59,703 nucleotides of DNA from Pseudogymnoascus verrucosus (lineage: Eukaryota), in the NCBI GenBank assembly GCA_001662655.1, contig KV460264.1; one strand, 5' to 3'. The translations under genes were made by a program, and so were the position numbers. Positions 3,730 to 4,771 of this stretch are shown one piece after another. A model generated the notes under the pieces. The model was not told where the DNA came from. It searched no databases and saw nothing but the letters and a program-made list of their open reading frames with translations. The stretch's first letter is position 1; each line of letters opens with the position of its first letter.

Positions 3730-4078
3730 ATGGTGATATGAGGGGGGCGTGTAGGATTTGTAGGATGGTGGGGTGATGCGGGTGATGCGAGTGTGTGCGG
3801 GTGTGGGCGTCGAATGTATGCTTGAAGTTGTGAAGATGTTAAGATGTTTGGACGGTTCAGTCCTGTGGATGGTGAAGAAGCTATCCAACTGGGACAAAAG
3901 GGATGTAATACTATTTACTATCATCAGCAAATGTACGAAGTCACAAAGTGCCCACTCTTTATGCAAAACAAAGACGAGGAATAAGAAACATGGAAAACAA
4001 TCTAACCGAGCTCTTCGCCTACCTTCCTTTCCTTGTCTCCTTTCACCCTCAAAAGCCTCAAAAAGTGCAAAAAAAAGC

Positions 4079-4330
4079 AAAAATGAAAGGTACAGTACTA
4101 ATGATGAGTCTTCAATTCAGTGAACAAGAAACATCAAATGATCATACTGTACTAAGCCACGATGTACGTGGAACAGCTGATGATATAGAGCGAATCGTTC
4201 TATCACCAGAAAGGCTCCCAGCTGAACGGGGCTCGAACCCGAGCGCTAGGGAATTAAGGAACACCCGAAGGCGTGAAGTTGCCTCTCATGCCTTACCGTT
4301 CGACCAGATGGCCGGCGGCTGTTGGATTCA
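4079..4330 (-). ncRNA. Putative RNA polymerase III-transcribed structured ncRNA with a tRNA-like head (family unknown)
   Basis: On the minus strand: TATATAA (4361-4355), A-box TGGTCGAACGG (4306-4296), B-box GGTTCGAGCCC (4239-4229), three hairpins downstream, then T5/T8/T5 runs (4083-4060). The ends are approximate. Confidence 0.6.
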
Positions 4331-4771
4331 TGGAGGGGGGACGCTTAGGGGGCCTTATATAGGATTAAGCGATCGGGGGGTGGTGGGGAGGGTTTTATAG
4401 GGGGTGGGATGGGGGATGGGGGTTTAAGGGGCCGAGGCGAGAAAGGGGGACAGGTGACTTTGTCAAGTGGCGTGCGGACTTCGTTGGTGTTCTTGGTATG
4501 GAACTACATGACGAGATGTTCCAAAGGGCATTCGTTCTCATCATTTGAAGCTATATTCTCTTTGGATTCCCTTGTGTTTGTTGTTCACAGCAATGTTATC
4601 CCACTCCATCTCCTTCCACACACAACATATGAACTGCACAGAACTGGCAAGAAGAATCGATCTAGAACACTTTCAATTTTAAATCTATTTGTTTCCACCA
4701 ATGCATTTTCACAATACATTGGCGTCTTTTATCCAAAGTTCCTCATCAAGATGCTTCATCTTGCACTCCCC

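Follow-up and report, generated by a model that had tools for sequence, protein, structure and literature searches.

The window analysed here, the whole 59.7-kb stretch taken from contig KV460264.1 of Pseudogymnoascus verrucosus, carries a 5S ribosomal RNA (rRNA) gene at 59537-59656 on the plus strand (Rfam RF00001, 73.4 bits), which was used as an internal control for the layout of RNA polymerase III (Pol III) genes in this fungus. The subject of this report is a second locus, an element all of whose features lie on the minus strand. In the predicted direction of transcription it presents upstream promoter motifs, a head resembling a transfer RNA (tRNA), three hairpins (H1, H2 and H3) and a cluster of T-runs (Table 1). 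A first-pass annotation of the locus had described a structured Pol III RNA with these parts; all of its motifs were found on the minus strand at the positions it gave, and the three hairpins were recovered by minimum free energy (MFE) folding.

The body of the element contains the signals of a tRNA-type internal promoter in workable order and spacing, with an A-box-like sequence (TGGTCGAACGG) located 56 nt upstream of the B box. The whole A-box-like segment presumably resembles the D arms of class II (Leu/Ser) tRNAs. Oligo-T termination signals follow the hairpins as a T5, a T8 and a T5 within 4083-4060. A composite pattern joining TATA, A box and B box, TATAWA-N(35-65)-TGGNNNANNGG-N(35-65)-GGTTCGANNCC, matched once in the 59.7 kb and in 0 of 100 shuffles; this test is biased, because the pattern was drawn up after inspection of the element. 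One further match to the B-box consensus, GGTTCGAAACC, occurs at 45697-45707 (+), and we take it as a chance match because it lies inside coding-like sequence and has neither an A box nor a T-run.

Comparison with the 5S rRNA gene showed that the two loci have upstream sequences in common. The 14-mer CCCCATCCCCCATC occurs only twice in the window, at 4421-4408 (-) and 59479-59492 (+), on both occasions in the transcribed orientation of the adjoining unit, and two or more matches were seen in 0 of 100 shuffles. Closer to the transcribed part, the pattern TATATA-N9-AAGCG also occurs only twice in 59.7 kb, at 4361-4342 (-) and at 59507-59526 (+), the latter 30 nt before the start of the 5S gene; 0.01 matches were expected and two matches were found in 0 of 100 shuffles, for a pattern that was derived post hoc. 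At the 5S gene itself, TATATATA begins 30 nt before the first base, AAGCG stands at -15, and the 3′ end is followed by T9 and T8. With the 5S spacing, in which the start falls 30 nt past the first T of the TATA box, transcription of the element would begin at A4331 and its TATA would lie near -30, as it does in the 5S gene, a proven Pol III gene of this fungus.

These observations indicate that the promoter architecture of the element is that of the 5S gene in the window: both have the C-rich 14-mer, TATATA-N9-AAGCG at equal spacing and multiple T-runs at the 3′ end. The two units differ in their internal promoters, which are of 5S type in the 5S gene and consist of tRNA-type A and B boxes in the element, and they show no sequence similarity in their transcribed parts. 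Because both upstream motifs recur only before the 5S gene and the element, the C-rich 14-mer together with TATA-N9-AAGCG may represent a general Pol III upstream module in this fungus.

Table 1. Features of the element and of its further copies in related organisms; positions are those of the window.
Feature	Position	Strand	Basis or remark
C-rich upstream motif CCCCATCCCCCATC	4421-4408	(-)	matches 5S upstream region
Distal TATA-like box TATAAAA	4399-4393	(-)	8 nt past C-rich motif; read from sequence
Proximal promoter module TATATA-N9-AAGCG	4361-4342	(-)	TATATAA 4361-4355, AAGCG 4346-4342
Predicted transcription start, A	4331	(-)	30 nt past first T of TATA; by analogy with 5S
AACAGC and GCTGTT	4323-4318 and 4177-4172	(-)	read from sequence
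Decayed tRNA-like head: degenerate cloverleaf with long variable-arm-like region	4321-4218	(-)	relaxed ARAGORN
A-box-like D-arm segment TGGTCGAACGGTAAGGC	4306-4290	(-)	read from sequence
Small hairpin with UUCG loop, ACGCC-UUCG-GGUGU	4274-4261	(-)	contains CGCC/TTCG/GGTG 4273-4262
T-arm CGGG-TTCGAGC-CCCG	4241-4227	(-)	read from sequence
B box GGTTCGAGCCC	4239-4229	(-)	perfect consensus; inside T-arm
Helix enclosing T-arm, CCUAGC/GCUGGG	4250-4245 with 4222-4217	(-)	fold; whole region 4250-4217
Hairpin H1	4209-4177	(-)	MFE fold
Hairpin H2, CCACG-UACAU-CGUGG	4171-4157	(-)	MFE fold
Hairpin H3, 63 nt, 22 pairs	4152-4090	(-)	MFE fold; includes 31-mer 4136-4106
T-runs T5, T8 and T5	4083-4079, 4076-4069 and 4064-4060	(-)	predicted Pol III terminator and back-ups
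Paralog A (contigs 6/14)	4060-4255		organism C: 21 substitutions, 11 gap letters
Paralog B (contigs 7+10/15+18)	4069-4255		exact 31-mer (4106-4136) in common with syntenic copy
Fourth copy (contigs 11/20)	4202-4250		this segment only

Standard searches did not recognize the head as a tRNA. Run with default settings, ARAGORN called 0 genes in the whole window, and queries of 1001 nt and 266 nt had no match to the Rfam tRNA model at E<=10. Relaxed ARAGORN (-ps90, threshold 90%) alone drew a poor cloverleaf, with 5 of 7 pairs in the acceptor stem, a long variable region and a 10-nt 'intron' that must be taken out. We conclude that the head is a decayed tRNA or tRNA mimic rather than a working tRNA gene, consistent with the proposal that it is not a canonical tRNA. 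At Rfam gathering thresholds only the 5S rRNA gene was matched in the window, and permissive searches with the same 1001 and 266 nt returned chance-level matches only (E from 1.8 to 9.3); no known family matches the element, in keeping with its unassigned status in the first-pass annotation. Open reading frames (ORFs) overlapping the element gave no match to Pfam.

Copies in related organisms were sought through public sequencing runs. Part of the stretch is contained in 19 of the 24 runs listed, which span eight coded organisms together with soil, root and phyllosphere metagenomes, and in 6 runs at least half of its words are present. Contigs from four runs were aligned to 3800-4600; runs X13 and X16 cover the stretch partly, and no inference was drawn from gaps. 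In organisms C and F one copy is syntenic with the window over the full stretch; its differences from the window number 12 and 11, respectively, in 801 nt, and the locus is syntenic in at least three related organisms. Seven distinct differences separate the syntenic copies of organisms C and F from the window in 4332-4440, none of them in the promoter motifs; by our estimate such sparing would arise by chance in about 9% of cases, so that it is consistent with selection and not significant. Contig 12 of run X4 represents another locus, elsewhere in the genome of organism C, which differs from 4389-4422 at 4 of 34 nt; with its C-rich motif and TATAAAA, it may lie upstream of a different Pol III-type gene.

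Counting the syntenic copy, organisms C and F each have the B box, the hairpins and the T-runs (4060-4255) at about four loci; the window itself has one copy of the element. The similarity between paralogs ends on the 3′ side at the T-runs (4060 or 4069), and on the 5′ side the short assembled pieces stop near 4255-4258. One paralog has, at its loose end, more T-runs within unrelated sequence, which fits selection for termination. Within H3, the 31-mer at 4136-4106 is identical in two copies per genome of the relatives, where it forms a node of its own at about 2.5 times the single-copy depth. Judging from the alignments, the family clearly has in common the variable-arm-like hairpin and the T-arm with its B box, together with the hairpins and T-runs that follow. 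The expectation of a single copy, which would have favoured a solitary RNA gene, did not hold: with about four loci in close relatives, the element is not a unique gene. By the copy-number argument of the first-pass annotation this leans to a repeat family, though one without a target-site duplication or the type of tail found on short interspersed elements (SINEs).

To assess structure, the 241-nt RNA was folded and gave z = -2.97 against dinucleotide shuffles; H3 alone, with its 22 pairs, gave z = -4.0 against shuffles. Paralog sequences were rebuilt for folding from incomplete difference lists: for contig 6 (paralog A) these give 14 of the 21 substitutions and 8 of the 11 gap letters, and for contig 10 (paralog B) 7 of the 10 substitutions and all 19 gap letters. 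All three hairpins fold in both reconstructed paralogs. The six listed substitutions in H3 of paralog A fall in loops, bulges or a wobble pair and break 0 of its 22 pairs, a result matched by 163 of 20000 random sets of six substitutions, and the MFE of this hairpin is -21.0 compared with -18.8 in the window, with 1.5% of random sets reaching -21.0. At H2, orthologs vary at two loop positions, 4163 and 4166, and the change at 4168 creates a wobble pair in paralog A. The basal 7 bp of H1 are unchanged in paralog B, and its distal part differs between the paralogs. At the pair 4248:4219 the window has U:G and three relatives have C:G in their syntenic copies; position 4219 is A in the paralogs. 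The ortholog changes in the folded part (4149, 4163, 4166 and 4248) are compatible with the fold, being placed in loops, forming wobbles or replacing G:U by G:C. The close relatives are too similar to be informative on conservation. Taken together, the comparisons lend modest support to constraint on H3 and so far none to constraint on H1 and H2. Candidate compensatory indels in H1 and H2 of paralog B, convincing by eye, were rejected when they failed random-letter controls.

The first-pass annotation had also suggested that TAAGGCATGA can pair alternatively with TCGTGGCTTA (9 of 10 positions), as in a switch or pseudoknot. This is one of 35 such 10-mer pairs in the element, compared with a shuffle mean of 27.7, and 35 of 200 shuffles reach 35. 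Because the pairing is not above chance, it gives no support for a switch or pseudoknot. Inverted matches to the H3 core were also noted: 21 nt at 4575-4595 (+), about 440 nt upstream of the H3 core, are 81% complementary, as an inverted repeat, to that core (4113-4133) and may be either a chance match or a degenerate partial copy; two 9-nt exact inverted matches lie close by, at 4537-4548.

We interpret the element as belonging to a small family of dispersed Pol III-type small-RNA genes, with some three or four copies in close relatives, that descends from a tRNA gene with a long variable arm, and estimate the probability of this reading at about one half. The element is best placed in a known class, that of tRNA-derived Pol III units. 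In support of the gene-family reading, tRNA identity has been lost while the promoter motifs survive intact in the window and show no change in the syntenic copies from organisms C and F, and the T5/T8/T5 series resembles the T9/T8 behind the 5S gene. The proposal of a novel structured Pol III RNA is accordingly retained in part: the Pol III-unit anatomy, the tRNA-derived head and the lack of a matching Rfam family stand, and the notion of a unique gene does not.

Several observations, in addition to the incompleteness of the paralog sequences, weigh against this interpretation. Only the syntenic copy showed the A-box half of the head, so the whole head may not be family-wide, and upstream of 4250 the fourth copy differs from the head in the window save for a short common motif. 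The T8 run of organism C is broken by a substitution at 4072 while its first T5 run is unchanged, indicating that the back-up terminator is not strictly conserved. The H3 of paralog B is weakened by a single outer-stem deletion together with one or two mismatches (MFE -10.5, z = -1.0), the changes in its H1 are no better than random letters (2293 of 3000 at least as stable), and its H2 extension is not significant (271 of 3000 random trials at least as stable). Among close relatives the unit is no better conserved than its flanks, organism C having 3 differences in the 253-nt unit, 2 in 279 nt downstream and 6 in 109 nt of proximal upstream sequence. None of the 19 runs containing the stretch is recorded as RNA.

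Homologues were also absent beyond very close relatives, which counts against the interpretation as well. Scans of metagenomes with a 23-mer around the B box gave 0 matches, and a 20-mer of the H3 core with two degenerate positions gave 11 loci, which we regard as chance matches because every flank is unrelated. The B-box 23-mer had 0 matches in contigs of prokaryote genomes, and a 24-mer of the H3 core had 0 matches in viral contigs. These blanks are weak evidence, because the scanned collections contain little fungal DNA.

The main rival is a low-copy, tRNA-derived retroposon of SINE type, in which a master Pol III transcript would have been reverse-transcribed and the hairpins would be the tRNA-unrelated body. 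We consider this unlikely, though a serious contender. A tRNA-related head with A and B boxes, an unrelated body and about four dispersed copies in relatives are what such a retroposon would present, and there is fungal precedent: the AfuSINE2 families of Aspergillus fumigatus (PMC5063351) are tRNA-related, 140-493 bp long and present in few copies, and so resemble the element in having a tRNA-related 5′ part with Pol III boxes, an unrelated body, a length of a few hundred base pairs and low copy number. However, AfuSINE2 copies have target-site duplications of 4-14 bp (PMC5063351), whereas no duplication of at least 7 nt was found at the present copy when its 5′ flank (4322-4460) was compared with its 3′ flank (3990-4079). 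The 3′ ends differ too. One AfuSINE2 is described there as ending in sequence like that of a long interspersed element (LINE) with ACT repeats (PMC5063351), whereas the element ends in conserved T-runs that lie inside the conserved unit, with no A-rich, simple-repeat or LINE-like tail. In addition, it has the 5S-like upstream promoter module, which retroposition would not be expected to carry, and its locus is syntenic, as described above. For these reasons, namely the missing target-site duplication, the conserved T-run end, the 5S-like upstream promoter and synteny, we favour a maintained gene family over an active retroposon.

It is also conceivable, and in our view quite unlikely, that the locus is a silent, decayed tRNA pseudogene with chance hairpins downstream, the extra copies being old segmental duplicates. 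The detection of a tRNA-like head only at a relaxed threshold would suit a relic, as would the weakened H3 of paralog B, the conservation of the unit at the level of its flanks and the lack of runs recorded as RNA. Decay alone sits poorly with promoter motifs and a B box that are intact despite the loss of tRNA identity, with paralog similarity that is limited to B box, hairpins and T-runs and ends at the terminators, and with an H3 that is well below shuffles in folding energy and retains all of its pairs in paralog A.

The yeast RPR1 and SNR52 genes carry their A and B boxes in a 5′ leader that is removed, with the functional RNA downstream. The element differs from both in being multi-copy and in that its downstream RNA is neither an RNase P RNA nor a canonical box C/D small nucleolar RNA (snoRNA). 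An SNR52-like arrangement, in which a C/D snoRNA would follow the tRNA-like leader and UGAUGU, 10 nt and CUGA would serve as box, guide and box, is very improbable. These two motifs and their 10-nt spacer do lie inside the 31-mer common to two copies, and the change at 4137 in both paralogs brings the C-like box nearer to consensus. Nevertheless, neither a C box (RUGAUGA) nor a CUGA D box adjoins a terminal stem, where the sequence reads AUGAUCA (beside the 5′ stem) and UUAG, so that the C/D arrangement is lacking; CUGA is altered at 4120 in paralog A, UGAUG pairs with CAUCA in the MFE fold, and no Rfam snoRNA family was found on the minus strand at E<=10. The Neurospora snR52 homologue is listed as intronic (PMC2780460), and together with the absence of a canonical C/D arrangement this disfavours the snR52-type leader that had been raised as a precedent.

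Two other snoRNA-like signals were considered at this locus. An H/ACA snoRNA was rejected, as the sequence has no ANANNA hinge box and no ACA 3 nt from its end. On the plus strand, opposite H3, a perfect C-box-like AAUGAUGAG occurs at 4097-4121; the Rfam model snoPyro_CD scored this site at 11.3 bits compared with a gathering score of 45 (E = 9.3, chance level), and no D box adjoins a terminal stem.

If the element is a Pol III-type small-RNA gene, TFIIIC would bind the A-box-like segment and the B box of the decayed head, and TFIIIB would be placed on the TATA box. Pol III would then start near A4331, and termination at the first T-run (4083-4079) would yield a primary transcript of about 250 nt. 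Together with the T-arm on which it stacks, the helix 4250-4245/4222-4217 looks like an acceptor/T-arm minihelix, so that trimming is possible: the region 4250-4217 may be recognized by RNase P and RNase Z, with cuts predicted near 4321 and 4218, and a cut after about 4218 would leave a 3′ product of about 135 nt containing H1, H2 and H3. Since it has 22 pairs and is the best-conserved part, H3 would be the likeliest functional module, acting as a structured RNA or as the hairpin precursor of a small RNA, possibly as a Dicer substrate. An 18-mer of H3 had no match in a full-text search of the literature.

The closest parallel to such a route is milR-4 of Neurospora crassa. This locus is a Pol III unit of tRNA-Ala and hairpin, in which an RNase Z cut behind the tRNA makes the 5′ end of the precursor of the microRNA-like RNA (milRNA) (PMC3547838). 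The element resembles it in being a Pol III-type unit with a tRNA-type module 5′ of a hairpin and a T-run after it (PMC3547838), and an RNase Z cut behind the tRNA module would likewise set the 5′ end of the hairpin RNA. A hairpin of at least about 20 pairs behind a tRNA-type module and before T-runs, the layout of a milR-4-type precursor, is present here in H3. By this analogy the element is a possible milRNA precursor, as the first-pass annotation had ventured. The milR-4 locus differs in being flanked by real tRNA-Ala genes, whereas the head of the element is a decayed tRNA mimic; the element, in turn, has three hairpins and belongs to a multi-copy family. A bolder version of the gene-family reading is that the family is lineage-specific, with the decayed tRNA retained only as promoter and RNase P/Z handle, a 5S-like module upstream, and H3 diced to microRNA-like RNAs. 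We consider this version rather unlikely.

Neighbouring sequence was also surveyed. The ORFs with Pfam signals that lie closest to the element are at 1-888 (-), which has a weak 14-3-3-like stretch (Pfam E = 0.0015, below cut-off), and at 6496-7050 (-), which has a Myb-like DNA-binding domain (Pfam E = 1e-6). A possible plus-strand gene starts from an ATG near 4751, and the element would be divergent from it.

To our knowledge, little of the Pol III transcriptome of filamentous fungi has been charted apart from tRNA, 5S rRNA, U6, RNase P RNA and signal recognition particle RNA. Were the element only a low-copy SINE-like repeat, it would be ordinary. If H3 is diced, the element would be a multi-copy relative of Neurospora milR-4 headed by a tRNA mimic. 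More generally, if the element is expressed, it would add a family of tRNA-headed hairpin RNAs that bring their own processing handle, which is a testable route to small RNAs. The module of TATATA-N9-AAGCG and the C-rich motif, for its part, offers a practical key with which unannotated Pol III genes could be sought in this fungus and its relatives.

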